Source of the DNA: Alphaproteobacteria bacterium
GTDB taxonomy: Bacteria; Pseudomonadota; Alphaproteobacteria; MPNO01
Length of the DNA: 64,000 bases
Direction of reading: 5' to 3'
NCBI GenBank assembly: GCA_964291675.2
Contig: OZ219866.1
Coordinates: 3,584,001-3,648,000, forward strand
Shown: positions 39,297 to 59,105 of the stretch, in pieces
Layout: each line of letters opens with the position of its first letter
Numbering within the stretch: position 1 is the first letter of the stretch
Notes under the pieces: generated by a model
Databases searched by the model: none
What the model was told of the DNA's origin: nothing
What the model saw: the letters and a program-made list of their open reading frames with translations, nothing else
Position numbers and translations under genes: made by a program

Positions 39297-39622
39297 GCGC
39301 GGATGCGATCGTGGGCAATGTGTCCGCGTGACCGTTCGTGCGAATGATCTTAGGGCAGAAGTCGAGGCGATTCCTCGCTTTGGGCATCCGGCGTCCCTGT
39401 CTGGTTGCTTCGTATGTTCCCGGCCCCAAAATTCCCGACGTGAACGGGAGATTCGTGTAGACACGGTCTTACGGCCAGAGTTCCCGGCAGTAATCGGCAC
39501 CGAACTTCAAGCCGACTACCAGTGAATTCATCGCAAGCGGCCCCGTTCAATGCGCCGCGTGTTACGTCGTAGATTTGCACAAGGTAGCATAAGCATCTTT
39601 CCGACGGCTCTTGGGAGGTATC

Positions 39623-40342
39623 GTGGAGATCGAAGTACTCGAATGCGACTGGGGCGTGGCGCGGCGCGATGACATCCGGGTACTGTTGATGGACGTCGCA
39701 TCGCACATCGTACGCGAGCTGCGAGATCCGCTCGACGAAACGATTCGCGTCATGAACCTGCCCGGGGAACCCCCGAGAGCCTTCTTCAGGAGACCGGGCG
39801 ATACCGCCTACGAAGTGAACCTCACGGCGAAGGATCGGAAGTGGAGTCAATTCGCCTACCAGTTCGGGCACGAGTCTTGCCATGTCCTTTCGGGACACGA
39901 CAAGTTGCGATGCGGTCCGAACAACTGGTTCCATGAGTCGCTCTGCGAGCTCTCCTCGTTCTTCGTGCTTCGCCGGATGGCAGAACGCTGGCCAACCGAT
40001 CCGCCGTACTCCACGTGGGCAGGCTACTCTGCGTCGCTGGCCGACTACGCTGAGTCTACGGCGAGCAAGTACAGTGAAGCCGCGCCGACCGGCTCTTTTC
40101 ACGCATGGTTGTTCGCGAACGAAATCCACATGCGAGATGACCCCTATCTTCGCGAACGGAACGGCGTCGTGGCTCTCAGGCTTCTCCCGTTGTTCGAGGA
40201 GACCCCGCAAGGGTGGAACGCCGTAAGGCATCTTCCGGTGTCCACGGGGATGATCGGTGAATACATCGAGGCGTGGAGGGCCGACGTGCAAGCTGTCGAC
40301 CGCCTGTTCGTCGAACGTGTCGGCGAAGCCTTAGCAGACTAA
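39623..40342 (+). CDS. Hypothetical protein with HExxH motif (putative zinc metallopeptidase)
   Basis: YQFGHESCH followed by NWFHESLCE; GTG start after GGAGG. Confidence 0.65.
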   Translation: MEIEVLECDWGVARRDDIRVLLMDVASHIVRELRDPLDETIRVMNLPGEPPRAFFRRPGDTAYEVNLTAKDRKWSQFAYQFGHESCHVLSGHDKLRCGPNNWFHESLCELSSFFVLRRMAERWPTDPPYSTWAGYSASLADYAESTASKYSEAAPTGSFHAWLFANEIHMRDDPYLRERNGVVALRLLPLFEETPQGWNAVRHLPVSTGMIGEYIEAWRADVQAVDRLFVERVGEALAD

Positions 40343-40742: not shown

Positions 40743-41765
40743 CTACTGAGTGACCAAGGAGAACACGAACCGCACCTGCAGAAAGTCGTCGGGGCCAGTT
40801 TCCAGCAGCTCACCGCGTTCGGAGAGGGTCAGTTGAGCAATTCGTTCGTGCGCAAGCGTGTCGAACCCGAGCGGAAGGCGTGCATTCGGATTGTGGATGA
40901 CGTAGAGGCCGTCAAGGAGATGTTCGGTGTATTCGGACTTGGGTGTTCTTCGGACGCGCGGTTCGATGGAGTCGGGATTGGGGTGGACGGTCGTGAACAC
41001 GAGATGGTCGACTGGGTCTTCGGCGAGCGCACGGATCTTCCCCATACCGGCGATAGGACTGTAAATCACGGCGCTGACGTGAGCATAGCGGTCGTCGCAG
41101 AAGAAACCGACCGGCAGGTCAACCGAATCGGACTTTGGAACTGTTGACAACGGATAGCGGATGACACGAGAGGACCGCGTCGCCATGCTCTGTTCTTCGT
41201 CAAAGTAGAGACCGAACAGGGCGGCGATGATCGGACGATTGTGCGCAAGCTGTGCGGCGGGTCGGTCGAAGGGCGCGAGCGCGATCACGAACGGTTTGTC
41301 CTTGACGTGGGCAAGCGTCGAGTGCCTATGGAGGTAGAGGTCGGATTTCGCGGTGAAGCGACTGCTGATCCGCACGATGGAATCTCGGTTGAACTCGTTG
41401 AGATCGACCGGAATCTCCGGCGGGCCCTCGCCAAATGCCGGCGGGCCGCCGGCGGGGGGCTGGGCGACGGTAGCTTCGACACACAGGTCGACTCCACGCA
41501 GGCTGGCCACGAAGTCGGGTCGGGAGTGCTTGAACTCGACGCCGCCGCCGAGCTCTCGGATGCAAGCGTGCACGTACAGCTCCCACATCGACGACTCGAA
41601 AGTGGTCTGGAACTCCTTGACGAACTTACCGTCGCGATCGACGAATCCTTGGCTCCAGTCGCGCAGCACGTCTCGCTCGGCGGCCTGTCGAGGGCCGCAA
41701 AGCCGACGGAAGATCGGATGCTGCTGCTGATCTTCGATCACTGGCGAAAACAGATCCACAGTCAC
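40743..41765 (-). CDS. Conserved hypothetical protein (possible restriction-endonuclease-like fold)
   Basis: GFVDRDGKFVKEFQTTFESSMWELY; RPDF...CVEAT resembles a PD-(D/E)xK core. Confidence 0.65.
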   Translation of the reverse strand: MTVDLFSPVIEDQQQHPIFRRLCGPRQAAERDVLRDWSQGFVDRDGKFVKEFQTTFESSMWELYVHACIRELGGGVEFKHSRPDFVASLRGVDLCVEATVAQPPAGGPPAFGEGPPEIPVDLNEFNRDSIVRISSRFTAKSDLYLHRHSTLAHVKDKPFVIALAPFDRPAAQLAHNRPIIAALFGLYFDEEQSMATRSSRVIRYPLSTVPKSDSVDLPVGFFCDDRYAHVSAVIYSPIAGMGKIRALAEDPVDHLVFTTVHPNPDSIEPRVRRTPKSEYTEHLLDGLYVIHNPNARLPLGFDTLAHERIAQLTLSERGELLETGPDDFLQVRFVFSLVTQ

Positions 41766-42075: not shown

Positions 42076-42729
42076 CTAGTGACCGCGGGCCATTGGCTTG
42101 TGTTGCGCGAGGGCCCATCCCCGGTTCTCTGGCCAAGCTACGCCCTGATAGGCCACATCCAGCTCCTTCGCCGTAGGCAAGAAGCACTTTTCGTCAACGG
42201 TTCGAATATCTCCATAGAGTTGCGAGAGAAAATTCCTGTCAACACAGCGAAACACTAGGGAGAGAGGTTCCGTTGCATTTTCGTGTTTGCATTTGCAGTC
42301 CTTGAGCCTGCTCAGGCATTTGGAGCATCTCATGAACTCACGAATTGATTTTAGTGCAGTTGTCGTTGGAGTATATAGAAGATATTGTCTGAAGGGCTGT
42401 ACCTGTGCATGGCCAAATCCATTGCGATAGATCACTAACCGTTCAATAGCATCGTGTATTTTCGTATCCGCTTTCCATTTTGGCCAAGCGGACAAGAATT
42501 CGTTCTTGATTCTGCCGAAAGTAAGACGACCGATTTCGAGTCTTCGTCTCGCAAATTCCGGTGGATGATTGCTCGCTCCGTACGCCTTGTTGTAATTCGC
42601 CCGTAGAGCGCAGCTACCTTCGTGTAGGACCAACAAATCCCGCATTGTGCTTTCGACCCAACACAGAAACATGAAGCACTCGCCTGCGGACTGCAGATGG
42701 TTATCCGTTTCTACCCGCTTAGATGGCAT
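42076..42729 (-). CDS. Hypothetical protein, low GC
   Basis: 217-aa ORF in an AT-richer segment; RNGFGH resembles an Rx4H (HEPN-like) motif; CxxC..CxC cluster. Confidence 0.55.
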   Translation of the reverse strand: MPSKRVETDNHLQSAGECFMFLCWVESTMRDLLVLHEGSCALRANYNKAYGASNHPPEFARRRLEIGRLTFGRIKNEFLSAWPKWKADTKIHDAIERLVIYRNGFGHAQVQPFRQYLLYTPTTTALKSIREFMRCSKCLSRLKDCKCKHENATEPLSLVFRCVDRNFLSQLYGDIRTVDEKCFLPTAKELDVAYQGVAWPENRGWALAQHKPMARGH

Positions 42730-43155: not shown

Positions 43156-43431
43156 CTAGCCGTTGACCGCGTCGCGGAGGGCCTTCGCCGCCTTGAACGA
43201 AGGCGCCTTCGAGGCCGCGATGTCGACGGGCTCTCCGGTTCGGGGATTGCGGGCCGTTCGCGCCGCCCGGATGCGGGTCGTGAATTTCCCGAACCCCGCG
43301 ATGGTCACCGGCTCGTCGTTCGCCAGGGCGTCGGCGATGGTGGAGAACACGGCGGCGACCGTGCGCTCGGCGGAGGCCCTGGTCACCGACGTCTCGGCGG
43401 CAATACGCGCGGCGAGTTCGTTCCTGGTCAT
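43156..43431 (-). CDS. HU family DNA-binding protein
   Basis: MTRNEL, GFGKF, ARNPRTGE, PSFKAAKALRDAVN. Confidence 0.95.
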   Translation of the reverse strand: MTRNELAARIAAETSVTRASAERTVAAVFSTIADALANDEPVTIAGFGKFTTRIRAARTARNPRTGEPVDIAASKAPSFKAAKALRDAVNG

Positions 43432-44820: not shown

Positions 44821-45792
44821 TCACGCACGACGCTGAAGACGCGCGAGCTGCGCCGCCCCGCTGCGCCGCGCCAGGAGCCGCTCGCCGTAGCGGTGCACCA
44901 TCGCCGTCGTCTTCCAGCGCCCCGCGTCCAGGATGGCCGGCATCCCGATGCCTTCGGCCACCATGTCCTGCGCCGCGCCCACCCGGGTGCTGTGCCCGGA
45001 GATGCGCGCGACAACGTCGCCCGGCAGCCCCGCGCGCTCGGCCATCGTCTTGAAGATGCGCGGCACCTGGCTCGCGTCGAGCCGCTCGCCGAGCGCGCCG
45101 CGGTTGAGCGAGCGGAACACCCTCCCCCCGGTCACACCGCTCCGCTCGCACCATGCGCGCACCAGCGCCACACTGTCGGGGGCGAGGTACAGGGTTGCGC
45201 CGCACCCCTCCGCGTCGGTCTTTGAGCGGCGCACCAGCACCGTCCCCGAGCCGTCCGCATCCACCACGATATCAGACACTTGCAGCGCGACGAGCTCGCC
45301 CCGGCGCAGCAGCGTGTCGTAGGCGACGGCGAGCAGGGCGCGGTTGCGCGCGTCGATGAGCGTGTCGCCGGTGGCGCCCATCAGGCGCTCGAGCAGCGCC
45401 CAGTTGAGCCCCTCGGCCTGCGCCTGGCGCCGCCCCTTGCGCCGGTGCATGCGCGCGAGCGCGCGGCGCACCGGCTCGCTTCGCGTCGTCTTCTCGAACC
45501 CCACCGCGCGGTGCGCGGCCGCGATGCTCGCCACGTAGCGGCGCACCGTCGCGGGCGCGCGCTCCTTCGCCATGGCGTCGACGAAGGCCGCGACCGTCTT
45601 CGGCGCCGCCGGCAGCGCGGTCAGTCCATGCGCCCCGCACCAGTCCTCGTAGATGGCGAGGTCCGAGCGCATCGCCCGCTCGGTGTTGTCGGCGAGCGCC
45701 CCGCGCGCGGACGCCGCGCAAGCGGTCCGCGGGCTCCGCTCGACGCAGCTTGCGCTCGTCTGCGCCGGCCGGTTCAGCGGTTCGACAAGCAT
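44821..45792 (-). CDS. Cre-family tyrosine recombinase
   Basis: SAM-like N-terminus (ADNTERAMRSD..DWC), RRGEL, RSKTD, SGHSTRVGAAQDM..G.....LDAGRW....VHRY, closely matching the Cre C-terminal catalytic region; RBS GGAGG. Confidence 0.92.
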   Translation of the reverse strand: MLVEPLNRPAQTSASCVERSPRTACAASARGALADNTERAMRSDLAIYEDWCGAHGLTALPAAPKTVAAFVDAMAKERAPATVRRYVASIAAAHRAVGFEKTTRSEPVRRALARMHRRKGRRQAQAEGLNWALLERLMGATGDTLIDARNRALLAVAYDTLLRRGELVALQVSDIVVDADGSGTVLVRRSKTDAEGCGATLYLAPDSVALVRAWCERSGVTGGRVFRSLNRGALGERLDASQVPRIFKTMAERAGLPGDVVARISGHSTRVGAAQDMVAEGIGMPAILDAGRWKTTAMVHRYGERLLARRSGAAQLARLQRRA

Positions 45793-45829
45793 CGATAAGC
45801 CTCCAGGTCCGTGAAACACGGCCCGGAGA

Positions 45830-45863
45830 TCGGCTCGCGATAACAATAGTTATCGCGAGCCGA
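45830..45863 (+). other. lox-like recombination site R (13-8-13)
   Basis: TCGGCTCGCGATA-ACAATAGT-TATCGCGAGCCGA with perfect arms (extending to 15 bp, 45828-45865), about 40 bp upstream of the recombinase start. Confidence 0.9.
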
Positions 45864-46150: not shown

Positions 46151-49100
46151 ATGACGGGGGGTTCAGTGAGCGTATTCCGGAACGCATTCAATCGCGGCGG
46201 TTGCCGGTCGGCGGTCGCGGCGGCATCGGTGAGGTTCGGCTTCGGCGACGGGCCGGTAACGGGCGCGGAGGCGCCGGCGGAGGACCGGGCGGCCGCTCCC
46301 GAATTCTCCCCGGGCGGGGCCGAGGCGCGCGCGGACCGGCGGGCGCGGAACGCCGGGCCGGAGTCCGGGGCCGGAGCGGGGCGTCGCCAACGAGGACCGC
46401 GCCGGTCGGCCGGGGCATTCGCGGGGCGGGCGAACGCGGGCCGTCGTTCTTCCGACGACGGGCCGGCCCGCCCGAGGGCGACGCCGGCCGGTGCGCTGGC
46501 CACGGCCCGCCGCGCCGGGACGGCCGCGCTGCTGCTGGCCTGTCTCGCGCTGCCGCTCGCGGCGCTCTTCTCCACGCCGGCCCACGCGCAGACCGAGAAG
46601 ACGCGGGTCACCAACCACAGCGGGGCCAACGCGACCTCGAACGGCACCGTCGGCGGGCCGAGCGGGAGCCAGTGGGGCCAAGCGCAGCAGTTCACAACCG
46701 GCGCCGGCAGCCACACCCTCGGCTCGGTGGTCGCGCATCTGAGGTCTGTCGGCTCGCAGGCGGCTGTGAAGGTGAGCATCTACACCTCCACGTCCGGCAA
46801 CAAGCCCGACACCAGCCTCTACGTGCTGAACAATCCGACGACGATCGCCGCGACGTCGGACAACACCTTCACCGCGCCGAACAATGCGACGCTGGCAGCG
46901 AACACGAAGTACTTCGTGGTGTTCGAGAACACGGCCATGGGCAGCGGGAGCAGCTACACCTACAGCGTGCGGCGGACGACCTGGAACTCCGCGACCGCGA
47001 ATACCGGGTGGAGCATCGCCGACACATCCAGGAGTCGGACCAGTGAGACCGATAACTGGACCTCAACCATCAACGATTCCATCAAGATCGCCGTCAAGAC
47101 GTCCCACAACGCCGCGACGGGCCAGCCGGCGATTTCCGGCACGGCGCAGGTCGGAAACACGCTGACGGCCAACAAGGGCACCATCGCGGACTCCGACGGG
47201 CTGCCCTCGTTCCCGGGCGGCTTCACCTTCCAGTGGGTGCGCGGCGGCACCAACATCTCGGGGGCGACGTCGCGCGAATACACGCTGACGGACGACGACC
47301 AGGGCAACACCCTCAAGGTGAGGGTCTCCTTTACCGACAATGAGGGGTTTTCCGAGGGACCGCTCGAGAGCGTCGCGACGTCGTCGGTCGCGGCGATGCC
47401 GGCGAACGGCTGCACGCCGGACGACCTGCGGCTCGTCGGCGGCGACAACGACCGCGAGGGCGAGGTGGAGATCTGCCACAACAACCAGTGGCGGAACGTG
47501 TGCGACGACGATTGGGAGAAGGTGGACGCCAACGTCGCGTGCAAGCAGCTCGGCTACACCCAGGGCGCCCGGCGGGCCACGATACTCTCCGAGTTCACTA
47601 CTTTGATCTCCGTCCAATTCTGGCTTGACGATGTCGCGTGCACCGGCAGCGAGACGAAGCTGGCGGAGTGCGAGCATGCGGGCTGGGGCGTGAACAACTG
47701 CACCCACGCCGAACGGGCCGGCGTGGTCTGCAAGGCGAATGCCAACGTCGCCGCCACGGGCCAGCCGGCGATATCCGGCACGGCCGTCACCGGCGAGGAC
47801 CTGACGGCGTCGACCGACGGGATCTCGGACGACAACGGCAACACCAAGGCGGAGGACGGCGATACCGGCTTCGCCTACACCTACCAGTGGTTCCGGGTCG
47901 ATTCCGACGGCACCTCGAACAAGACCCAGATCACGGGCGAGACGGCATCGACCTACACCCTGGTCGCGGCCGACGTGGGCAAGAAGGTCATCGTGGAGGT
48001 GAGCTTCACCGACGACGAGAGCAACGCCGAGGGGCCGCTCGCGAGCGACGCCTATCCCGCCGGGACCGGCACGGTCGAGTCGGCCGACTCGACGCCGCCG
48101 GAGGTGGACTCGGCGACGGTGGACGGCACGTCGCTGGCGATCACCTTCAACGAGGACCTCGCCGCCGCGGCCAACCTCGCGAACGATGCCTTCGAGGTGA
48201 AGCGGACGCCGCCGGGCGAGGCCGAGGAGACGGTGACGCTCACCGGCTCGCCGGCGATCAGCGGCATGACCGTGACGCTGACGCTGGATGCCGCGGTGAT
48301 TGCGGGCGACGCGGTGACGGTGGGCTACACCAAGCCGACCTCGGGCACCGACAACGTGCTCGAGGACGCGGCGGGCAACGAGGTGGCGGATTTCACGGAG
48401 ACGGTCACGAACGACACCGAGGTCGTCAACAACCCCGCGACGGGTGTGGCCATCGACGGCCCGGCGCAGGTGGGCATGACGCTGACGGCGGACACCTCCG
48501 GCATCGAGGACGCCGACGGTCTGACCGGCGCGACGTTCGAATACCAGTGGTTCAGCGGCGGCACCGAAATCCCGGGCGAGACCGGGTCCACCTACACGGT
48601 GCGGCCCGCGGACGTCCTCAAGCGGATCAAGCTGCGGGTGACGTTCAAGGACGACGCCGGCAACGACGAGGCGCCGGAGAGCCCCGCCATAGCGCCGGCC
48701 GTGCCGGCGGCGGCCGACCACTGCGACTCCCTGACCGTCTGGTGCGCCACGCTGACCGCGGGTGCAGACGATGCAATTCTTGACGACGCTGGCAGACTAC
48801 TAGACGCTGACGAAACGGGTTACCTGCGCGCTACGCGTTCCGGGCGTGGCAGGGCGCCTGCGGTTCCGCGGCGCATCCGGCGAAGACTCTTGGCGGACGT
48901 CATCGAACCATTCGAGGAGCAGAAGGCAGAACGTGGCGAGTCTGACTGGAACGATGTCGCTATCGAAGCCGCAGCTACGCATAGCCATGGCTACGATGTG
49001 GTCGTGGTCGATGAAGCCCAGGACCTCTCAGCAAACCAAGTAAGAACCATCCTCGCGCACTTGAGGGAAGACCACTCGACGACCTTCATCATGGATGCCG

Positions 49101-49750
49101 TGCAGCGAATCTACCCGCAGGGCTTCCAATGGAGAGAAGTGGGCATCGATATGCGTCCGCAAATGGTGTTCGCCCTAACTCGCAACCATCGCAATACAGG
49201 GGAGATCGCCAGGTTTGCGGCGTCATTAGTACGGGACCTCCCGCTAGAGGAGGATGGTTTGGTGCCTGACGCAAACGCGTGCGAGCGTTCGGGTCCACTT
49301 CCTCGTGTGGTGGTAGGAAGATACGCTGCTCAGGTCAACTACATGCTGAACGAGGTTCAAGAAGCTATAGAATCCGAGGAAACGATCGCTATCCTCCACC
49401 CCAAGGGGTGGTTCGATTACGCAAGGGGGACGCTTGACCGACGCGGCATCGACTACTGTGAGCTGACACGACAGCGCGAATGGCCGACCGGGCCGGAGCT
49501 GGTCGCGTTGTCAACGTTTCATTCCGCAAAAGGTCTCGAATTCGATCATGTGCTTATGCCTGGCCTAAATCAGGAGGTCACCCCTCATGGTGACGAAGAC
49601 GGAGACGGCACGCTCGACTCTCTTCGCCGCTTGGTGGCTATGGGTATCGGGCGCGCCAGACGCTCCGTCATGGTCGGTTGCAAACCTGGAGAAGAATCGA
49701 CGTTGATTGAGATGTTTGATCCCGAAACCTACGAACTCGTTCGGGTTTGA
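46151..49750 (+). CDS. Chimeric ORF: secreted adhesin N-terminal part (Ig-like repeats, SRCR, SwmB-like) fused to a UvrD-like SF1 helicase C-terminal half
   Basis: Signal peptide (AHAQ), ATGQPAISGTA repeats, SRCR; after ~48820 VVVDEAQD, LTRNHRNT, STFHSAKGLEFD, GIGRAR; no Walker A; no beta-barrel; codon usage changes. Confidence 0.75.
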   Translation: MTGGSVSVFRNAFNRGGCRSAVAAASVRFGFGDGPVTGAEAPAEDRAAAPEFSPGGAEARADRRARNAGPESGAGAGRRQRGPRRSAGAFAGRANAGRRSSDDGPARPRATPAGALATARRAGTAALLLACLALPLAALFSTPAHAQTEKTRVTNHSGANATSNGTVGGPSGSQWGQAQQFTTGAGSHTLGSVVAHLRSVGSQAAVKVSIYTSTSGNKPDTSLYVLNNPTTIAATSDNTFTAPNNATLAANTKYFVVFENTAMGSGSSYTYSVRRTTWNSATANTGWSIADTSRSRTSETDNWTSTINDSIKIAVKTSHNAATGQPAISGTAQVGNTLTANKGTIADSDGLPSFPGGFTFQWVRGGTNISGATSREYTLTDDDQGNTLKVRVSFTDNEGFSEGPLESVATSSVAAMPANGCTPDDLRLVGGDNDREGEVEICHNNQWRNVCDDDWEKVDANVACKQLGYTQGARRATILSEFTTLISVQFWLDDVACTGSETKLAECEHAGWGVNNCTHAERAGVVCKANANVAATGQPAISGTAVTGEDLTASTDGISDDNGNTKAEDGDTGFAYTYQWFRVDSDGTSNKTQITGETASTYTLVAADVGKKVIVEVSFTDDESNAEGPLASDAYPAGTGTVESADSTPPEVDSATVDGTSLAITFNEDLAAAANLANDAFEVKRTPPGEAEETVTLTGSPAISGMTVTLTLDAAVIAGDAVTVGYTKPTSGTDNVLEDAAGNEVADFTETVTNDTEVVNNPATGVAIDGPAQVGMTLTADTSGIEDADGLTGATFEYQWFSGGTEIPGETGSTYTVRPADVLKRIKLRVTFKDDAGNDEAPESPAIAPAVPAAADHCDSLTVWCATLTAGADDAILDDAGRLLDADETGYLRATRSGRGRAPAVPRRIRRRLLADVIEPFEEQKAERGESDWNDVAIEAAATHSHGYDVVVVDEAQDLSANQVRTILAHLREDHSTTFIMDAVQRIYPQGFQWREVGIDMRPQMVFALTRNHRNTGEIARFAASLVRDLPLEEDGLVPDANACERSGPLPRVVVGRYAAQVNYMLNEVQEAIESEETIAILHPKGWFDYARGTLDRRGIDYCELTRQREWPTGPELVALSTFHSAKGLEFDHVLMPGLNQEVTPHGDEDGDGTLDSLRRLVAMGIGRARRSVMVGCKPGEESTLIEMFDPETYELVRV
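47426..47731 (+). other. Scavenger receptor cysteine-rich (SRCR) domain
   Basis: LRLVGG..EGEVEI..N.W..VCDDDW...A.V.CKQLGY...WLDDVAC.GSE..L..C...GWG..NC.H.E.AGVVC. Confidence 0.92.
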
Positions 49751-49755
49751 TCCCC

Positions 49756-50448
49756 ATGTCGAGGGACAACTTCATTCCGGCTCGTCCAAGAAGATCGGAC
49801 GAAATCGAACTTCTGCCGACATGTCCGGAAGTCCTCGCGGCGGCGGAAGAGCGGGAAGTGCGGAACGTGATGCATTTCACAACGATGACCGGCGCGGTCG
49901 GGGTTTTGGCCGCTGGCGCCGTCAAGAGTCGAGAGCGGCTACCCGAAGACAAGTATCTTGAATACGTCTATCAACCGAACGCAGCATACCGCAAGGACAC
50001 TGCCTGGCTGGACTATGTGAATCTCTCCGTGGAGCGCATCAACGCCTGGATGTTCGATGCATCTCAGCGTTGGCATGCGGCCGAGGGAAATCCTTGGGTT
50101 TTGCTGTCGTTTTGCCCGGAGATATTGGCGCATCCGGGGGTGGTGTTTACGACGACAAACAACATTTATCCAGCGTGTACTCGCGCCGAAGGCTTACCGG
50201 GATTCGAGCGGATGTTCGCAGAGACGGTTGTTGGTCGTTACAACAGCGTTCATGGCCGTGATGGAAAGCATTCCGCATGGCCCACCGACCGACAGGCGGA
50301 AGTTCTGTATCCAGGCGAGCTGTCGTGCGAGTATCTGCAACGGATTGATGCCCAAACAGAAGATGCTGCTGACGGGATTCATGGCATGTTGAGTGGTCTC
50401 CAATTGGATGAGATTACCGTTCGTCATGCACCGGAGGCGTTCGAATGA
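49756..50448 (+). CDS. darT: DarT-like (DUF4433) DNA ADP-ribosyltransferase
   Basis: HFTT N-terminal motif, G...SR, YVNLS, FTTTN, QAEVL catalytic glutamate motif. Confidence 0.8.
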   Translation: MSRDNFIPARPRRSDEIELLPTCPEVLAAAEEREVRNVMHFTTMTGAVGVLAAGAVKSRERLPEDKYLEYVYQPNAAYRKDTAWLDYVNLSVERINAWMFDASQRWHAAEGNPWVLLSFCPEILAHPGVVFTTTNNIYPACTRAEGLPGFERMFAETVVGRYNSVHGRDGKHSAWPTDRQAEVLYPGELSCEYLQRIDAQTEDAADGIHGMLSGLQLDEITVRHAPEAFE

Positions 50449-52181
50449 CTGTTTCGGAATCGCTTCGTGGGGCTCCGCCACCGGATACCGGGGAGGTTCC
50501 ACAGCCTAGCAATGTGGCTTCAACTCAGTTTGCAGCGCGTGCCGCGATGACCCACCGTTCCGCTCTGTGGGCGGCTTACGGGGACGCATTGGGCTGGATC
50601 AGTGAACTGACCGATTCGAGAGGACTGAAGCGAAGGACGGGAGGTGAGCCGCTTTGCCGTCCCATCGCATGGAATAGGAGGATCGGTGGGCGGGGGGGAA
50701 TCACCGTAACGTTGCCGGTGGGTTGCTACTCAGATGATTCCCAGTTGCGTCTCGCCACCGGCCGGGCGATTGGGCCTAGTGGTTTCGATGTTGAAGCGTT
50801 CGCAAAGGTCGAACTCCCAGTCTGGCTAAGCTATGGGCTCGGGGGAGGCAAATCTACGAGCGCTGCTGCGGGGAACCTGTCTAGACAGACAGTCCCTTGG
50901 TTCGCCAACACGTTCAAGGGATGGAGTAACTCCGGCGGAAACGGCGCGGCGATGCGCATCCAACCCCACGTCTGGGCGAGCTCGGATTTGGACGACGCTC
51001 GCACGTACCTGCCCGACGTTGTGCGCAACTCGATCTGTAGCCATTCCCATCCCATCGGATTGCTCGGGTCGGTGGTTCATGCACTGACGCTCGCACAAAC
51101 CATGTCCACCGGCCATCAACCATCGGTCAGTGACGTAATGGAGGCTGTCAAGAAAGCGGCTGAACTCCCCGAGTTGATGAGGAGCGATACCGAGGTAGGA
51201 AGCTATTGGCGCGGAGCTTTTGAACGGGAGTCAGGAAGTTTCGATGACGCATGGAGGCGTGCAATCGAAGAATGCAGGGAAGCGGTGTCAGTTGCTGGAG
51301 CAAGCCCTTCGAATGCGAATGGAGCTGAACGCTATGGCGCTTTGATCCAGGGCCTTAGACTTCGCGAGCCAGCGCGGAGAGGCAGCGGAATGCTGACTGC
51401 AGTCGCGGCGGTCGGTTTGTTGTGGTGCGAAGCTGAACCGGAAAAGGCCATGCGTATCGCAGCAAACGAACTAGGGACAGATACTGATACGATTGCGTCG
51501 ATGGCCGGCGCGATCGCCGGTGCGGTCGCTGAAGCCGAGCCGCAAGTGCAGGTGCTGGATGCGGAGCTATTCCGTTCTGAGGCTAATCGGTTGGTAAGGG
51601 TTGCCTTTGGCGAACGTCCGGTTGGCCATCGTTATCCCGATCTGCTGCGCTGGTCGGCGCCGTCCAGACGCGCCGATACTTTGGTGCGCACGAAAGACGA
51701 GGGTCTCTACGTTCGGGGTCTAGGCCTCGCTAAAACTGCGAGCGATCCGATAACGTCGCCGAGTGGCGATTTCCAATGGCAGTGGTTGACGCTTGAATCT
51801 GGTCAGACCTTGCTAATCAAGCGCAGGGCTGACCTGATGCTCATCGAAGATGAAATTGAGACATCGCCGGCGCAACGGTCTCTGCATCCGATGCCGCCCA
51901 GGGTCGATGCCGGCCAGGAGCCATCTGCGGTGGAGCGTCGAGCAACCGATTCGGATTGTCCGGTGGAAGCGCCTCCCGAGGAAGCAAGGGATGCTACCTC
52001 AAGAACTGAGTCGTCCTTGGATCTGCAGGTCGCGCTCCACTATATCGAGGAGCACAAGGATGATGACAGAGCTGTCGGGGCCGCCTTGCGGCGCGTCGTC
52101 AACAAGGGGACTCCAGGCCAAATTGCAGCATTCACCTCCGCCTTGATCGATCATCTGGGAAAGACTGAGAGGAGGAGGTGA
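50445..52181 (+). CDS. ADP-ribosylglycohydrolase (ARH/DraG family) with C-terminal extension
   Basis: AYGDALG, YSDDSQL, GNGAAMR, HSHP, DTDTIASMAGAIAGA; ATGA-coupled to darT. Confidence 0.9.
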   Translation: MTVSESLRGAPPPDTGEVPQPSNVASTQFAARAAMTHRSALWAAYGDALGWISELTDSRGLKRRTGGEPLCRPIAWNRRIGGRGGITVTLPVGCYSDDSQLRLATGRAIGPSGFDVEAFAKVELPVWLSYGLGGGKSTSAAAGNLSRQTVPWFANTFKGWSNSGGNGAAMRIQPHVWASSDLDDARTYLPDVVRNSICSHSHPIGLLGSVVHALTLAQTMSTGHQPSVSDVMEAVKKAAELPELMRSDTEVGSYWRGAFERESGSFDDAWRRAIEECREAVSVAGASPSNANGAERYGALIQGLRLREPARRGSGMLTAVAAVGLLWCEAEPEKAMRIAANELGTDTDTIASMAGAIAGAVAEAEPQVQVLDAELFRSEANRLVRVAFGERPVGHRYPDLLRWSAPSRRADTLVRTKDEGLYVRGLGLAKTASDPITSPSGDFQWQWLTLESGQTLLIKRRADLMLIEDEIETSPAQRSLHPMPPRVDAGQEPSAVERRATDSDCPVEAPPEEARDATSRTESSLDLQVALHYIEEHKDDDRAVGAALRRVVNKGTPGQIAAFTSALIDHLGKTERRR

Positions 52182-52525
52182 TGCGGCGGCCGAAGCATCG
52201 AGTATGGGCTAGTGGTTATAGCGCCCGAGCGGGGATCTTTGCTGGTCGCGGGTCCTCGGGCGACTGCGCGAACGCATCGGTGAGTGCGTCCGCGCCGCGG
52301 GACTGCTCTTGCTCGCAGAGAGTCCCTGGCTTTCTTGGTTTCCCTTCGCGTTCTTGACTTGCCCTACCCGCACCCGAAGTCGCACCGTTACCGTTCGGCT
52401 GGGGCGCTTGCGCAGGTGCGGCTGTTCGCGGAGATCGTGCGCGATATCGCGCCCTTCAACAAGAAAACATTCATACTTACTATTGACCTTCGAACATGAC
52501 CGTCAAAGGCGACGACACAAATACA

Positions 52526-53815
52526 ATGACAAAACAGAAACAAGACTTTTTGGCTGAACAACAAGAACGATATGAATGGTTGCGTCGTGTCACTGACGAA
52601 GCAATTGCTGCGCGCACGAAGGAGGTAGAATTCCACGGCCTAGAGGAAGAGTTGCGGAATTTACAGAAAGCAATTCTGGATAGTTACAATCACACAAAAC
52701 CAATAAAACATCCTCGCGACAAAGGCGATCATCGCGAAGAGATATTGAGACATTTTCTCACCAAACACGGCCTCCTGCCCAACAGTGTCAGTATACCATC
52801 TGTCAGCACACGAGTAGTTTCCCCATCAGGCCACATCAGTCCGGAGCTTGATATTCTTTTTGTCAACGCGAACGATTCAATAGTTCTTAAGAGATATGAA
52901 AACACGCTTGAATACTATCCCGTAGAATCTGTGCTTGGTACGATACAAGTGAAGTCGAAACTAACGAAAAAGGAGTTGGCATCTGGGCTAAAGCATATAC
53001 AGGCTTTCAAGAACATAAGACCAATCCGCTCGCTAAGGCGTCAAATGGGCGGCTTCACAATGGAGGCAGGTCTCTACCGGAGGTTTGGCATTCTATTCGC
53101 ATACGAGCGTGCCTTACGGTGGGAGAAAATGGTTGAGGTCATTCGTGAGCATTTAGCTGAGTGCCCAAACAGCCTTTGGCCAAACATGATAGTGATTCTG
53201 GACGCGGGTTATTTTCTTATTGGTGACAAGTCGCGTTATGCGTGGAATCAGAGAACTCTTGAGGACATATCAAATCCAGAAATTCATGGTTCTCCGGACT
53301 ATTCTGGGCACTGTCTACAGCAATTCTATTCTTATCTGATTGCTCTCGTGAAGGAAGCAAATAGTGGTTGGCCGGATACGAACGATTACTTGCGTATGCC
53401 GATTGCTGTGGGGGAACACTCTCTCGAATTTGCGCATGGCGGGTTTTCTGAATTCGCCAAATGTCCTCAACATGGAAACTACTTGAAAAAGATTAAGGTG
53501 GAGAATATCAAGATAATACTAGATAAGACCAAAAATAGTGAACCAATTAATTGGATTAAGGCGTTGGACCTGGCAGCGGGCAAACCCGGCACGGACTCTG
53601 AACGTTATGCGAAACAACCTGGCGACGTTATTGTGTATGATCCGGATAGTCTTGGTCTAGAGAATGTATTGTTGAGCGCGGAGGGGTTCATTACGCACGA
53701 ACAGGTTATCATTGACGGCCGTCAATACTGGCTTCCTTGGCACTACGTTGTTGCTCACGAGCTTATTGATCCGTGTCCGCAGTGCCGAGATGGTGCGAAA
53801 GATGCGAAGTCATAG
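52526..53815 (+). CDS. DUF6602/NucC-like restriction-fold nuclease with C-terminal extension, low GC
   Basis: HPRDKGDHREEIL..LP..VVSPSGHISPELDILF..YPVESVLGTIQVKS pattern resembles the NucC N-terminal core; start could be 52496. Confidence 0.7.
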   Translation: MTKQKQDFLAEQQERYEWLRRVTDEAIAARTKEVEFHGLEEELRNLQKAILDSYNHTKPIKHPRDKGDHREEILRHFLTKHGLLPNSVSIPSVSTRVVSPSGHISPELDILFVNANDSIVLKRYENTLEYYPVESVLGTIQVKSKLTKKELASGLKHIQAFKNIRPIRSLRRQMGGFTMEAGLYRRFGILFAYERALRWEKMVEVIREHLAECPNSLWPNMIVILDAGYFLIGDKSRYAWNQRTLEDISNPEIHGSPDYSGHCLQQFYSYLIALVKEANSGWPDTNDYLRMPIAVGEHSLEFAHGGFSEFAKCPQHGNYLKKIKVENIKIILDKTKNSEPINWIKALDLAAGKPGTDSERYAKQPGDVIVYDPDSLGLENVLLSAEGFITHEQVIIDGRQYWLPWHYVVAHELIDPCPQCRDGAKDAKS

Positions 53816-53992
53816 CATGTGGATCCCCGGTTACGGCATGTCCAAAAGTCAGTTCTGTTGCCGCTGTAGCCCTGCGTAAAGGTAATGGGGTTGCGAGGGA
53901 ACAGCTAGACGAGGAAATGGGGGCTTTTTTCACAAGGTACAGGGTCTCGCACAGGCATATGGATGGGATTTGCCGCAAGAGAGTGGTTTAGA

Positions 53993-55195
53993 TCACATGG
54001 CGGCGGCAACCTCTGGCGGCGTGTCCATGTCGGCTTCGAGACTGTCGGAAATCCGAACGGCAGCGACCTTGACCGAGTGCTGGCCAAGGTGTGCATAGCG
54101 CGCGGTCGTCTGCACCTTAGTGTGACCGAGCAGCTTCCCGATCATCGGGAGACCCTCCCCGAGGGCGAGCAATCGCGAGGCGAAGCTGTGACGCAAATCA
54201 TGCAGGCGGACGTCTTCGAGCCCCGCCTCCCTGCGGACGAGCTGCCACGACGCGTTCAGCGTCCGCAGGCGGGAGCCGCGCACGCGGCCGGGAAACACCC
54301 ACGGGTTGTCGGGCCGGCGCGGCAGCGCGATCAGGACCTGCTTCGCCGCGGGCGAGAGCGGCACGGCCCGCGCCCCGGTCTTCGCATCCCGGAGCCGCAA
54401 CTCGTCGTGTTCGAGGTCGACATGCTCCCATTTCAGGGTCACGATCTCGTTGCGTCGGCAGCCGGTCAGCATCAGCAGGCGCAGCGCCCCGGCGGCGCTC
54501 GTTGAGACCGTGCCCGCGGCTTCGAGCTCGGCGAGCACGCGGCCCAACCGGTCGAACTCCTGCTCCGACAGGAAGCGCTCGCGCCCGCGCGTGGGGTATT
54601 TCTGGATGAACCGGCAGGGATTGCCGCCGGCCGGCGCCGCGCCCGACTTGGCGGCGGTGTAGAACAGTCGGGAAAGCAGCGAGACCGCCTGGTTCGCCAT
54701 GGTCGGCGTCGCGCGCATCCGGTAGTGTAGCGCCGCAATATGGTCGGGCGTGACCTCGCTCAGGCGCAGGGCCCCGAACTTCGGCAGCAGGAACCTGTCC
54801 AGGATGTAGCGGCATCCCCGCTGCGTCGTCGGCTTGCAGCGCACGGCGACATGTTCGGTCATGTAGCGCTCGGCCATCTCGGCGATCGTCGGCCCGTTGG
54901 CCGAGGGGGAATCGGCGCCCGGGCGGCTCGGCGTCTCGCCCGCCTTCAGGCTGGCAAGCAGCCGTCCCGCCTCGCGCCGCGCCCGCTCGGGCGTCCACAC
55001 TCCGTGGCGGCCGATGGTGACGCGGCGTGTTTTCCCCCGGGCGCGGGTCTGCACCATGTAGACCTTCGAGCCCGAGGGATGGACGCGCACCCCGAAGCCG
55101 GTGAGGTCGCGGTCCCAGAACAGGGCTTCGCGCTCGGCGACCGGCAGGGCGTCCACCGCGCGCCGGGAAAGGACGAGCTTGTTCGGGCTTGGCAT
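53993..55195 (-). CDS. Tyrosine integrase with N-terminal Arm DNA-binding domain
   Basis: WDRDLTGFGVRV, TIGRHG; TGCRRNE, AKTG, HDLRH, LLGH, TTARYAH. Confidence 0.93.
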   Translation of the reverse strand: MPSPNKLVLSRRAVDALPVAEREALFWDRDLTGFGVRVHPSGSKVYMVQTRARGKTRRVTIGRHGVWTPERARREAGRLLASLKAGETPSRPGADSPSANGPTIAEMAERYMTEHVAVRCKPTTQRGCRYILDRFLLPKFGALRLSEVTPDHIAALHYRMRATPTMANQAVSLLSRLFYTAAKSGAAPAGGNPCRFIQKYPTRGRERFLSEQEFDRLGRVLAELEAAGTVSTSAAGALRLLMLTGCRRNEIVTLKWEHVDLEHDELRLRDAKTGARAVPLSPAAKQVLIALPRRPDNPWVFPGRVRGSRLRTLNASWQLVRREAGLEDVRLHDLRHSFASRLLALGEGLPMIGKLLGHTKVQTTARYAHLGQHSVKVAAVRISDSLEADMDTPPEVAAAM

Positions 55196-55215
55196 GGCGG
55201 TCTCCCGTGAGAAGT

Positions 55216-55896
55216 TCATTTGACGCCGACGTGCTGGGAGCCGTCCGGCGGCACGAGCCTGGGGCCGAGGTCGTCGCCGATGTTGGCCGTGGCATGGCGC
55301 ACCGAGTCGCGGGCGAGATGCGCGTACCGCGCGGTCGTGGTCACCATGCGATGACCGAGCAGGTCGCCAATCATCGGCAGCCCCTCGCCGAGCGCGAGCG
55401 CCCGGGAGGCGAACGTATGTCGCAAGTCATGCAGGCGGACGTCTTCGAGCCCGGCCTCCTTGCGCACGCGGTCCCACGAGTCGTTGAGGTTGACCAGCCG
55501 GGTGCCCTTCTTCTTGCCCGGGAACACCCACGGATTGCCGGGCGTGCGGGCGAGGCCATCGAACACTCTCGCGGCGGCGGGGGTGAGCGGGACCATGCGG
55601 GTACCAGTCTTCGTGTCGGGGAGCCGCATTTCGCCGGTGTGGAAGTTGAGGTCGTCCCACCGAAGCCCGAGGATTTCGTTACGGCGGCACCCGGTCAGCA
55701 CCAGGAGCCGGATGGCCGCCGCCGCGTGGGTGGAGGCGAGCCGCTTTCCCGGGGCCGCCCGCAGCGTCTCGCCGAGCCGGAAGAGCTCCTCGCGGGTCAG
55801 GAACCGCTCGTGCTTCTCGACCCGGAAGCGGGGCACGCTCCGGGCCGGGTTGCTGCCGGAGGGCCGCCAGCCCCAAGCGTCCGCCAGGTTGAACAT
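55216..55896 (-). pseudogene. 5'-truncated tyrosine integrase (catalytic domain only)
   Basis: Begins mid-protein at MFNLA..NP; TGCRRNE, TKTG, HDLRH, TTARYAH intact; Arm and core-binding regions missing. Confidence 0.8.
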
Positions 55897-56050
55897 CTTC
55901 GTAAGACCTATTATCGGGGCATGGCCGCAAGTGCCTGCGCTTGTCTATGCGTTACTTTTCTTGCGTGTTTAGAATGCTCTAGGGAGATCAGGCCTTGCCT
56001 GCCCGTATCTGCGCAGGGCTTCCAGTGATCGCCGGGTGTTGGCGAATGTG

Positions 56051-56080
56051 TTGACATATGGGTGGCCATTCCGCCACAAT
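56051..56080 (+). promoter_or_regulatory. Candidate sigma70 promoter for a leaderless integrase transcript
   Basis: TTGACA-N18-CACAAT ending 6 nt before ATG 56087; no Shine-Dalgarno sequence. Confidence 0.45.
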
Positions 56081-56086
56081 CCCCCC

Positions 56087-57370
56087 ATGACCGGAAAACG
56101 CGTCGCTCGCCACAAGCTCACCCTCACCAAGCGCGCCGTCGAGGCCATGAAGCCCGCCGACAGGCCCTGGATCGCATGGGACGTCAAGGTCACCGGATTC
56201 GGCGTCCAGGTCCAGCCCACCGGCACCAAGTCCTTCCTGGTCAACTACCGCACCGACGGCGGCGGCAGGAAGGCCCCCAACAAGCGCGTCGTCATCGGCA
56301 GGTTCGACAGGATGTCGGTCGATGACGCACGCAAGATGGCCTACCAGATGCTGGGCAGGGCCGCGGGCGGGGACGATCCTGCGGTCGAGCGCGCCGTGGC
56401 GCGCGGCATGCCCCTGCTTGAGGAGGCCTTCGAGGACTACATGGCGGTCAATCCCAAGCGGGCCGCCAGCTCCAACCGGATGTACCGCGCCGAGTTCGAC
56501 AACATGCTGGGCGACTGGCGCAGGCGCCCGCTCGACAGCATCACCCGGCGCGACGTGGAGGAGCGGTTCAACCGGCTCAGCCGGGATCACGGCTGGGCGC
56601 CTGCCAACCGGGCGATCGCGCAGTTGCGCTCGGTCTACCGCCGTCCCTGCGTCGATCTGGAGGGCTTGCGCAACCCGGTCGATCTCTGGCTCGCCGGCGG
56701 GGGCGAGTACCACACGCCCAGGCGGCGCAAGATCTCCACCCCGGCGGACGTGCTGCCGCGCTGGCGGGCCGGGATCGAGGCGGTGGTGGTCACGCCCGGG
56801 GCGCGGGACGCCTTCCACTTCGGGCTCTACACCGGCATGCGCATTCAGGAGGTGCTGCCGCTGCGCTGGGAGCGCGTGGACATGGCGGGCCTCTTCTTCC
56901 GGGTCGAGGAAACCAAGACGGGGGAGCCTCTGGAGCTGCCCGTCACCCGCCAGCTCGCCGCCATCCTGGAGCGCCGCCGCTCGGAGTGCGACGGCCTGGA
57001 AGGCGGTCTCCGGGACTGGATCTTCCCTTCCGCCCTGAGCGGCTCGGGGCATATCGCCAGTCTGAGCCATCTCTACGCGCGGATCGGCAAGGCCGCCGGC
57101 ACGAAGTTCTGGTATCACGGCCTGCGCAACTGCTTCATCACCGTGGCCGAGCGCGACCTGCTGCTGCCCAGGGCCCTGACCAAGCGTCTGGTCAACCACG
57201 CCCGGCCGGCGGACGTCACCGAGGGCTACGCCGCCGACTGGACCATCGAGCAGCTTCGCGGCCCGGCGCAACTCATCGCCGACAGGATCGAGCTGCTGAT
57301 GAACGGGGGCGAGGTCTCGCCGGCTGACAGTGGTGACGACCGAGCGGCGCACGCGGCGGCAGCGAAATGA
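56087..57370 (+). CDS. Tyrosine integrase with Arm domain
   Basis: AWDVKVTGFGV, TGMRIQE, TKTG, HGLR, LVNH, VTEGY. Confidence 0.92.
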   Translation: MTGKRVARHKLTLTKRAVEAMKPADRPWIAWDVKVTGFGVQVQPTGTKSFLVNYRTDGGGRKAPNKRVVIGRFDRMSVDDARKMAYQMLGRAAGGDDPAVERAVARGMPLLEEAFEDYMAVNPKRAASSNRMYRAEFDNMLGDWRRRPLDSITRRDVEERFNRLSRDHGWAPANRAIAQLRSVYRRPCVDLEGLRNPVDLWLAGGGEYHTPRRRKISTPADVLPRWRAGIEAVVVTPGARDAFHFGLYTGMRIQEVLPLRWERVDMAGLFFRVEETKTGEPLELPVTRQLAAILERRRSECDGLEGGLRDWIFPSALSGSGHIASLSHLYARIGKAAGTKFWYHGLRNCFITVAERDLLLPRALTKRLVNHARPADVTEGYAADWTIEQLRGPAQLIADRIELLMNGGEVSPADSGDDRAAHAAAAK

Positions 57371-58602
57371 CCGACCCCTCCGGCAAGCGGGTCGCGCGGA
57401 CCAGGCTGACCCTGAACCGGCGCAGCGTGAAGGCGCTGAAGCCCGCCGACAAATCCTGGATCGCCTGGGACGACAGGCTGACCGGCTTCGGCGTCCGGGT
57501 GCAGCCCACCGGCCTCAAGTCCTTCATCGTCAACTACCGCGCAGGCGACGGCGGGCGGAAGGCGCCCAACCGGCGCGTCGTGCTCGGCCGCCACGGCGCG
57601 ATATCGGTGGCTCACGCCAGGCGCGAGGCGCGCGAGCTGTTGAACAAGGCGGCCCGCGGCGAGGACCCGGCGGGAGCACGTTCCGAGGCGCGCCGCATGC
57701 CGACGCTGGAGCAGGCCTTCACGGATTTCATGGACGCCAACACCAAGCGGGCGGCGGGGACCGACAGGCTCTACCGCGAGGAGTTCGCCCGCCACTTCTC
57801 CGAGTGGCACGAGCGTCCGCTCGACACCATCTCGCGGCGCGACGTGGAGGCCCACTTCAACCGGCTCACCGAGGACAGCGGCTGGTCTCCGGCCAACCGG
57901 GCGATCTCGCTGCTGCGCTCGATCTACCGCCGCCCCTGCGTCGATCTCGACGGCCTGCGCAACCCGGTCGATCTGTGGCTTGCGGGCGGCGGCAAGTACC
58001 ACCGCCAACGGCGGCGCAAGATCTCCACCCCGGCGGAGGTGCTGCCGCGCTGGAAGAAGGGGATCGTGGAGACGGTGAGCACGCCGTGCGTGCGCGACGC
58101 CTTCTGGTTCGGCTTCTACACCGGCATGCGCCTGAGGGAGGTGCTGCCGTTGTGCTGGGACCGAGTGGAGAAGACGAACATGGTCTTCCGGGTCGAGGAG
58201 ACCAAGACGGGCGCACCTCTGGAGCTGCCGATCACCCGGCAGCTTGCCGCGATCCTGCAACGCCGATTGGCAGACAGCGGGGCGTCATCGGACGATGACG
58301 ACGACTGGGTGTTTCCGTCCGCCCTGCCTGGCGCCGTGGGCCACATCGCGGACCTGTCGCACCACTACAAATGCATCGGCGAGGCGGGCGGGGCGCGGTT
58401 CTGGTACCACGGCCTGCGCAACTGCTTCATCACCGTCGCTGAGCGCGACCTGCTGCTGCCCCATGCGCTGACCAAGCGGCTGGTGAACCACGCGCCCGCT
58501 AGCGACATCACCGAGGGCTACGCGGCCGACTGGACCATCGAGCAGCTCCGCGAGCCGGCGCAGAGGATCGCGGACCGCATCGAGGAATTGATGAACTCCT
58601 GA
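57367..58602 (+). CDS. Tyrosine integrase with Arm domain (tandem paralog)
   Basis: AWDDRLTGFGV, TGMRLRE, TKTG, HGLR, LVNH, ITEGY; ATGA overlap. Confidence 0.92.
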   Translation: MTDPSGKRVARTRLTLNRRSVKALKPADKSWIAWDDRLTGFGVRVQPTGLKSFIVNYRAGDGGRKAPNRRVVLGRHGAISVAHARREARELLNKAARGEDPAGARSEARRMPTLEQAFTDFMDANTKRAAGTDRLYREEFARHFSEWHERPLDTISRRDVEAHFNRLTEDSGWSPANRAISLLRSIYRRPCVDLDGLRNPVDLWLAGGGKYHRQRRRKISTPAEVLPRWKKGIVETVSTPCVRDAFWFGFYTGMRLREVLPLCWDRVEKTNMVFRVEETKTGAPLELPITRQLAAILQRRLADSGASSDDDDDWVFPSALPGAVGHIADLSHHYKCIGEAGGARFWYHGLRNCFITVAERDLLLPHALTKRLVNHAPASDITEGYAADWTIEQLREPAQRIADRIEELMNS

Positions 58603-59105
58603 GGCTGGCGGGTCGTCGAGGCATGCGCCGCGGTCCCCGCTCGTCCGGAACCATTGGCAAGCCTGTCCCGATGGAGCGCGGCATGATCTTCATGCATGCG
58701 CGGCACCGTGCCATCATGTGAGATCGCCGAGCCTCTGTGGCATCCACCTTGCGGGCCCTCGCGGACTACGCCAAGGCCGCATCTTCTTTAGCCTGCGATC
58801 AATACGACTGGCTTCGCTGACGACCCGGAAGCGAAAACTCGGTTGAGAAGAGACTCGGACCTGCGTCTGGCTTAGTCCCCACTGGAATCGCGCCCGATTG
58901 TTCAATATGAAAGCCGAGGCCGACTACACTGCATTGTACAGTTCAATTTGAGGTCCGCTATCTTTCAGGATTTGAAAAGAGACGCCTGTCTACTCCCCCG
59001 CTATCCTCAGCTCGCCATGCGGCGATAACCCGACACGGCAGCGTGCAAGATCCGTCCGATCCTCGCAGTAATTCACCTCCCGCAGAATCAGCCCCCGCGA
59101 CCACA

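Follow-up and report, generated by a model that had tools for sequence, protein, structure and literature searches.

A DarHTG-type operon with a truncated, adhesin-joined darH in an alphaproteobacterial genome and the predicted guanine specificity of its DarT and DarG3

The window analysed here, i.e., the whole stretch of 64,000 nucleotides from an alphaproteobacterial genome, contains the remnant of a UvrD-like helicase gene, a darT gene and a gene encoding a hydrolase of the ARH/DraG family (Table 1). The helicase frame stops at 49750, leaving a gap of 5 bp before the ATG of darT at 49756, and the end of darT overlaps the start of the ARH ORF (50445-52181, 578 aa) by an ATGA at 50445-50448; both junctions are as described in the initial annotation. 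Profile searches against Pfam agreed with the domain calls made there: the DarT-like gene at 49756-50448, whose product contains the motifs HFTT, YVNLS and QAEVL, matched PF14487 (86.9 bits, E 2e-24; cut-off 22.5), the ARH protein matched only ADP_ribosyl_GH, PF03747 (110.2 bits, E 2e-31; cut-off 26.2), and the helicase half matched UvrD_C (37.6 bits; cut-off 25.6). The ARH fold extends to about residue 390, and the additional C-terminal region, previously put at about 200 aa, measured ~190 aa. A scan limited to consensus sequences found no promoter-like sites on the + strand between 45800 and 54200; no tRNA genes were present in the window, and the stretch was not found in any RNA run searched.

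Table 1. Features of the locus, with positions counted from the first nucleotide of the window.
Feature	Position	Strand	Remarks
Adhesin 5' part	46151..48763	+	choice-of-anchor R, SRCR, SwmA-type and Ig-like repeats; in-frame fusion with the helicase remnant
Linker, 57 bp, open in frame	48764..48820	+	codon usage differs from the adhesin; could not be aligned to darH of the three closest relatives
darH 3' two-thirds, UvrD-like helicase	48821..49750	+	DEAQD and HSAKGLEFD kept; first ~157 residues including Walker A missing
darT, intact ADP-ribosyltransferase	49756..50448	+	DarT1-type active site by alignment: H40, F41, R59, R79, D81, S91, M99, F100, N135, Q180, E182
darG3 ARH domain, aa 1-390	50445..51614	+	metal ligands D47, E54, D97, D98, D346, D348 intact
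darG3 C-terminal extension	51615..52181	+	beta domain, linker, three-helix bundle

There is no separate gene for the helicase half. A 1199-aa ORF (46151-49750) begins with ~870 aa of adhesin domains, and the helicase half makes up its last 309 codons; the adhesin part has a signal-peptide-like stretch near aa 125-146 and an uncertain true start codon. A homologue, P0128, matches the adhesin part up to 48763 and then diverges, and DNA similarity to the helicase of the closest relatives begins at 48820-48821. The UvrD-like C-terminal half had thus been correctly placed from 48820, whereas the fusion to the adhesin and the absence of Walker A had been missed. The linker had a codon score of -17.2, versus -0.2 to 9.9 in 37 adhesin windows; it could not be aligned to darH from the three closest relatives and had no exact match among the metagenome contigs. 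As the linker matches neither parent, we rejected an origin of the join by one deletion at TTAC, a short shared sequence. An intact relative of 468 aa (locus L008) shares 83% identity with the retained part of DarH. Walker A, nearly invariant among intact DarH relatives, is absent from the fused ORF and from the rest of the genome, and the missing helicase N-terminus occurs nowhere else in the assembly. Judged from the sequence, darH is decapitated by a rearrangement and joined in frame to an adhesin gene. Lineage-specific changes revealed no clear extra decay in the remnant, with replacement to silent ratios of 7:9 in the helicase, 5:7 in darG3 and 1:9 in darT; a 2-aa deletion at 49404 was rejected as a sign of decay, being common to 6/54 intact helicases.

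We surveyed the gene neighbourhoods of related DarT proteins. At all 68 related genome loci found via DarT, a helicase gene lies upstream and an ARH gene downstream, and because it is kept at 68/68 loci the arrangement is not due to chance. The gene order was also kept in 3/3 viral-contig loci; all eight plasmid DarT matches had an adjoining ARH match, and in the five plasmid loci read the helicase was always upstream, once as a fragmented gene. Broken genes were found for darH at 7/65 scorable loci and for darG3 and darT at 1/68 each (Fisher p 0.03, a value that overstates the difference, since the 68 loci are not independent and many come from related MAGs). Such a bias towards darH would be expected were the helicase an activator, the loss of which is safe.

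A module of this composition has already been described and tested against phages as DarHTG, or Liu-DS3, composed of DarH, DarT and DarG3 (PMC13069673, April 2026; preprint bioRxiv 10.64898/2025.12.08.692795, December 2025). In that paper, anti-phage activity was demonstrated for Liu-DS3 only, defence required the DarT active site and was lost in DarH ATP-site mutants, making ATP binding by DarH essential, and the failed cloning of a mutant supported the antitoxin role of DarG3. DarH was characterised there as lacking the 2B domain; intact DarH relatives have ~465 aa, compared with 715-725 positions in UvrD/PcrA models, a length that would fit such a lack. A homologous E. coli operon encodes proteins of 465, 221 and 561 aa (WP_000699006, the helicase, WP_000151475 and WP_001087212) that are 41, 39 and 39% identical to the helicase (over its retained part), DarT and ARH proteins of the window, respectively. 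It occurs in 21/5426 genomes, which fits the '<0.5%' given in PMC13069673. Indirect support for the assignment also comes from Table S2 of that source, where two DarTG-type operons are listed in 3/3 carrier genomes versus one in 3/3 non-carriers, i.e., genomes outside the 21 E. coli operon matches; against it, Table S3 gives a DarTG candidate in only 2/3 carrier genomes checked.

The window shares with DarHTG a UvrD-like helicase, a DarT and an ARH-fold antitoxin within one operon, the antitoxin being directly downstream of DarT with neither macrodomain nor NADAR in the window protein. It differs in that its darH has lost ~157 N-terminal residues and is fused to an adhesin, and the ATP-binding site is not intact. 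From this architecture and the E. coli homologue at 39-41% identity we infer that the trio belongs to DarHTG. The initial annotation had proposed a conserved anti-phage module, which the neighbourhood survey and the published phage tests bear out; its idea of a non-canonical system as a novelty falls, since the trio matches one already named, and the third eraser class that it postulated, an ARH-type DarG antitoxin, had likewise been published, as DarG3 (PMC13069673). The names DarHTG, DarG3, TgaH and Liu-DS3 appeared only in the paper and its preprint in a literature search covering largely openly accessible literature. PADLOC v2 did not name the trio: its DarT match was weak (E 4e-6), and it has no ARH model. 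Two further candidates were discarded: DefensePredictor DS-32, a NADAR plus PRTase, is another system, and the ARG-centred systems (PMC9503650) are defined by the absence of a coupled transferase. Taken as a whole, the locus is best explained as a darH-darT-darG3 operon of DarHTG in which darH was decapitated and joined to an adhesin, with the toxin, eraser and helicase roles proposed below; we assign to this reading a probability of about 0.85.

The closest solved structure to DarT is DarT1, 8BAQ (profile E 1e-16), which Foldseek also ranked first (TM 0.71, versus 0.62 for DarT2). In the alignment to 8BAQ the DarT1 set R52, D54, S63, M71, N104 and E152 corresponds to R79, D81, S91, M99, N135 and E182 of the window protein, which by this comparison carries the signature of guanine-specific DarT1. 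Among 64 family members, H40, N135 and E182 are kept in 64, R79 in 62 and D81 in 60, and position 99 varies (M 25, F 24, Y 9, L 6). As in DarTG1 (E. coli C7 DarT1 plus NADAR, PMC11543638), the catalytic and base-holding residues of the toxin are present; by contrast, the guanine O6/N7 readers K74 and Y75 of DarT1 are replaced by A102 and S103, and the antitoxin is an ARH instead of a NADAR, with a helicase in the operon. DarTG2 (DarT2 plus the macrodomain protein DarG) shares the DarT fold (TM 0.54-0.62), and its antitoxin, too, is extended at the C-terminus by a region that in DarG2 binds the toxin (PMC11543638), but DarT2 has Y71 and H119 where the window DarT has S91 and N135, and its macrodomain antitoxin has no counterpart here.

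The ARH domain of DarG3 resembles ARH/DraG hydrolases (ARH1, ARH3, DraG, Tri1, MJ1187) in fold (Z 30.6-36.5; MJ1187 36.5, ARH1 34.1, ARH3 33.9) and in its acidic metal-binding motifs; it differs in sharing only 16-23% identity with them, in its extension and in its DNA-type transferase partner, and its 27.6 bits are far below the DraG equivalog cut-off of 337. The extension, found across the family, comprises a small beta domain (aa ~410-462), a variable disordered linker (472-522) and a three-helix bundle (525-578); its best Pfam match had an E of 0.13, the ESM Atlas gave no usable match, and structure searches, which hardly probed the beta domain, returned only generic helical matches (Z up to 7.3). 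Pfam detected no NADAR in the window antitoxin. Among the relatives NADAR occurs only as a fusion to DarG3, in L060 (P0129), P0130 and P0131, and these have lost the ARH metal ligands in 3/3 cases, versus 1/117 unfused proteins; the three form one clade, in a quick tree of 45/121 proteins.

The N2 of guanine is part of a guanidine group, as in arginine. The DarT1 signature of the toxin and the ligand loss in the NADAR-fused relatives lead us to predict that DarG3 takes ADP-ribose off guanine N2. Somewhat better than even are, in our judgement, the chances that DarG3 is an ARH erasing the guanine-N2 ADP-ribose set by a DarT1-type toxin, that the ARH-decayed, NADAR-fused clade reflects an eraser swap, and that the ARH scaffold and extension have a second, non-catalytic job. 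This last suggestion follows from the retention of a decayed ARH site in proteins onto which a NADAR was fused, and the job could be, e.g., holding DarT or DarH. The guanine-N2 eraser reading concerns the DarHTG family and not the broken copy of the window. The removal of DNA-linked ADP-ribose by the ARH, as previously put forward, thus gains comparative support from the DarT1-type residues and the NADAR-fused clade. Guanine-N2 removal is an activity unlisted for ARH enzymes in PMC12945103 and PMC7050489: in the table of the former (Feb 2026), guanine-N2 adducts are assigned to NADARs only and ARH3 to phosphate-linked ADP-ribose only. Against this reading, guanosine-ADP-ribose on RNA was not removed by a Streptomyces ARH or by human hydrolases (PMC11833690).

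In an intact DarHTG, DarT is the toxin and, by its residues and fold, would most likely ADP-ribosylate guanine N2 of single-stranded DNA, like DarT1, and DarG3, the antitoxin, would most likely remove the guanine adduct through its two-metal ARH site. DarH would use ATP to tip the balance during infection; most likely it would make single-stranded phage DNA accessible to DarT or drive DarT off DarG3. We considered it rather unlikely that DarT instead modifies a protein (arginine or serine of a host protein, a phage protein or DarH) or DNA end phosphates, with DarG3 reversing this. Such targets would suit the characterised ARH enzymes, which act on arginine-, serine- and phosphate-linked ADP-ribose (PMC7050489; PMC12945103 Table 1), as well as the loss of K74/Y75, and the available sections of the DarHTG paper report no substrate; however, the DarT1 asparagine that holds the base is retained, along with the catalytic R/D/E set, and the eraser acquired by the clade with the lost ARH site is one for base-linked ADP-ribose.

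In the window itself, the DarH step would fail, since the protein lacks Walker A and lies behind a probable export signal. The copy is probably defence-dead, a neutralised toxin-antitoxin remnant, because ATP binding by DarH is essential and Walker A is missing; the initial annotation had not drawn this conclusion. It is improbable that the fusion works as a new protein, or that darT and darG3 defend without DarH, even if the frame is open across two breakpoints, darT and darG3 are unbroken and retain every catalytic residue, and two studies gave the same join: the fusion is a singleton (cluster of 1) whose join is spanned by no other protein among 563 candidates, no adhesin sequence lies near any of the 68 related loci, an open frame would arise by chance in roughly 1 in 8 cases (an estimate), Walker A is absent, and ATP-site mutants of DarH lose defence (PMC13069673). 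Still more improbable is an intact darH in the real genome, with the join an artefact of chimeric assembly. The abrupt change of composition at about 48760, the contamination of the assembly (6.67%) and adhesin repeats, able to mislead assemblers, would fit a chimera; nevertheless, single contigs of runs X2 (47983-54044) and X3 (48425-50697), from two studies, cross the join with 0 differences, X2 being possibly the source sample and X3 having a depth of 2, and the missing 5' part of darH is nowhere in the assembly.

DarHTG being already published, the locus does not represent a new type of defence. Its relatives offer a comparative clue to the base modified by DarT and to the possible erasure of base-linked ADP-ribose by an ARH enzyme; relative to the available sections of the DarHTG paper, the DarT1 signature of DarT and the ligand loss in NADAR-fused DarG3 are the additions made here. 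Should the adducts made by DarT be on guanine, phage NADARs, T4 AdfN among them (10.1101/2024.07.11.602962), should bear on DarHTG as well, although activity of DarHTG against T4 is reported. Finally, the repeated loss of the helicase shows a way of silencing such a toxin system that does not kill the host.

The initial annotation had read a helicase, a DarT-like toxin and an ARH-family hydrolase in tandem, and the gene ends, the ATGA by which the ARH gene start overlaps the DarT gene end, and the Pfam domains all agree with this arrangement, each of the three families being recovered by its own profile. The GC content of the module is 0.57–0.59, against 0.66–0.74 in the first 39 kb of the window, and its neighbours are tyrosine integrases, a PD-T7-5 match and a NucC-like nuclease. 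The DarT copy is the only one in the whole genome, and a DNA match longer than 1 kb to the module was found in 1 of 40 related genomes.

Features of the module and of its surroundings (window positions)
Feature	Position	Strand	Evidence or remark
Helicase frame (darH)	stop at 49750	+	UvrD_C, Pfam E 2e-9
DarT gene	49756-50448	+	DarT, Pfam E 2e-24
ARH gene (darG3)	50445-52181	+	ADP_ribosyl_GH, Pfam E 2e-31
DUF6602 / NucC-like PD-(D/E)xK nuclease	52496-53815	+	439 aa, low GC, just 3' of darG3
PD-T7-5	40743-41765	-	strong match, E 3e-99
Low-GC ORFs beside PD-T7-5	39611-40342, 42076-42729		no family match
HU/IHF-like DNA-binding protein	43156-43431	-	within mobile region
Tyrosine-integrase-like ORF	44821-45846
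Tyrosine-integrase-like ORF	53993-55219		Pfam-confirmed; first of cluster 53993-58602
Tyrosine-integrase-like ORFs	55216-55896, 56036-57370, 57367-58602		sequence resemblance only
RecQ-type + UvrD-type double helicase, large ORF	59043-63998	+	DpdF and PsyrT profile matches; runs off window

The system cannot be regarded as new, as had been proposed, since it is already published as DarHTG, or Liu-DS3, consisting of a UvrD-like helicase without the 2B domain (DarH; TgaH in the preprint), DarT and DarG3, an antitoxin similar to ARH hydrolases (PMC13069673). In that paper, Liu-DS3 changed growth after infection by T4, T5, T7 and SSL_2009a; the system was shown to defend against phage and to depend for this on catalysis by DarT and on ATP binding by DarH, as mutants of the DarT active site and of the helicase ATP site no longer defended. 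Cloning of a DarG3 mutant failed, and DarG3 is probably the antitoxin. The window trio is linked to Liu-DS3 indirectly, by this description and by a homologous E. coli operon (465/221/561 aa), 41/39/39% identical to the window helicase, DarT and ARH proteins. The E. coli operon is present in 21 of 5426 genomes, in agreement with the frequency below 0.5% given for Liu-DS3 (PMC13069673). In Table S2 of that paper, all three carrier genomes checked have two DarTG-type operons and all three genomes outside the 21 matches have one; the Table S3 counts are 1, 0 and 1 for carriers versus 0, 0 and 0 for non-carriers.

Scanning a species-representative genome collection with the window DarT gave 68 loci, and the gene neighbourhood bore out the three-gene order in every one of them, with the helicase 5' and the ARH 3' of DarT. 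Judging by record titles, the loci come from groups that include Proteobacteria, Actinomycetota, Chloroflexota, Acidobacteria and Planctomycetota. On plasmids the ARH match adjoins the DarT match in 8/8 loci, and in the five examined for the helicase it was present upstream, fragmented in one; all three loci on viral contigs have the complete trio. On two Streptomyces plasmids (L003, L004) the operon adjoins TnsA/TniQ (Tn7-like) transposition genes. In a variant on a Nostoc plasmid (NZ_CP040275.1; L087:1-8927), a large AAA protein is encoded together with an ARH and with a DarT that a long N-terminal extension brings to 531 aa, and BREX pglZ and brxL follow immediately 3'. A more distant helicase-DarT-ARH branch (L005, L088, L089) has helicases that share 26–28% identity with the main family; in L005 and L089, DarT is more DarT1-like, judged by eye.

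In the window copy the helicase is broken. What remains of it closes a 1199-aa ORF in which adhesin domains take up the first ~870 aa and which has no Walker A motif. Similarity to the closest darH genes begins abruptly at 48820-48821, corresponding to residue 158 of an intact relative, and the missing 5' part was not found elsewhere in the assembly. The match to an adhesin homologue ends at 48763 and, because the 57 bp in between resemble neither side, the join probably arose with two breakpoints. The join is real, being spanned with 0 differences by contigs from sequencing runs of two studies (X2, possibly the source sample itself, and X3, at depth 2); no relatives of the fused protein were found across it. 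Helicase loss is recurrent: among 65 scorable loci (three contig-edge loci excluded) darH is broken in 7, versus 1/68 for darT and 1/68 for darG3 (p 0.03, the loci being non-independent). Since the remnant lacks clear extra decay, the break may be recent. The window copy very probably no longer defends. Elsewhere, an in-frame deletion joins DarH 1-90 to DarT 115-229 with darG3 intact (L064:5722-6342, also L077), and in L007:3748-5268 darH is split by an element of 1.5 kb that contains an ORF resembling a transposase.

By sequence and predicted structure, the window toxin is DarT1-like. Against solved structures the family profile matched solely E. coli C7 DarT1 (E 1e-16), and the model (pLDDT 91.6) is nearest to DarT1 (TM 0.71), followed by DarT2 (0.54–0.62). 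The essential DarT1 residues R52, D54, M71, N104 and E152, and S63, which with N104 occupies the places of DarT2 Y71 and H119 (PMC11543638), correspond to window R79, D81, M99, N135, E182 and S91. In an alignment that took in 64 of 68 intact DarT sequences, near-duplicates being excluded, no sequence departs from N135, S91 or E182, while R79 is kept in 62 and D81 in 60. By contrast, K74 and Y75, which in DarT1 read guanine O6 and N7 (PMC11543638), are not conserved in the window protein; guanine as the target is thus a prediction, not a result.

In the DarG3 model (pLDDT 86.5) the ARH domain occupies roughly the first 390 residues (Z 36.5 to MJ1187, 34.1 to ARH1, 33.9 to ARH3); behind it come a small beta domain, a linker that is disordered and a tail of three helices. 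D47, E54, D97, D98, D346 and D348 are predicted metal ligands, a role assigned by aligning the protein with DraG and ARH3 and from the general ARH background (PMC7050489). They are identical in all 61 aligned sequences, a set from which near-duplicates and the fusions in L033, L060 and L074 were excluded. DarG3 of Syntrophorhabdus aromaticivorans (L033:6643-9888) carries a fused SIR2-like domain (PF13289, E 2e-12).

In the mechanism that we propose, DarT would modify guanine N2 in single-stranded DNA, a target we consider fairly probable; given this modification, DarG3 would very likely remove the adduct catalytically, and DarH would likely activate the system rather than act as an antitoxin. 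That DarG3 is an ARH erasing nucleobase-linked ADP-ribose has, in our estimate, a probability of about 0.55. A bearing on this comes from locus L060 (L060:793-2931), where DarT is intact and DarG3 lacks the ARH acidic residues and carries a C-terminal NADAR (E 5e-51). Searching with this protein, itself a fusion, gave 262 proteins; among the best 120, three are ARH-NADAR fusions, and at least two of five key acidic residues are missing in 3/3 fusions versus 1/117 unfused proteins. The three (P0129 of L060, P0130, P0131; gene context known for L060) are 41–56% identical and group together on a single branch when 45 proteins are placed in a quick tree; they therefore represent one evolutionary event. 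As NADARs reverse guanine-linked ADP-ribose (PMC11543638), the swap supports a base-linked adduct. Against this, a Streptomyces ARH and human hydrolases left guanosine-ADP-ribose on RNA (PMC11833690), and NADARs act on cytidine adducts too (PMC12945103).

The NADAR fusions still keep the decayed ARH together with its extension, which suggests a binding role. The comparative work adds to DarHTG a testable prediction on its chemistry.
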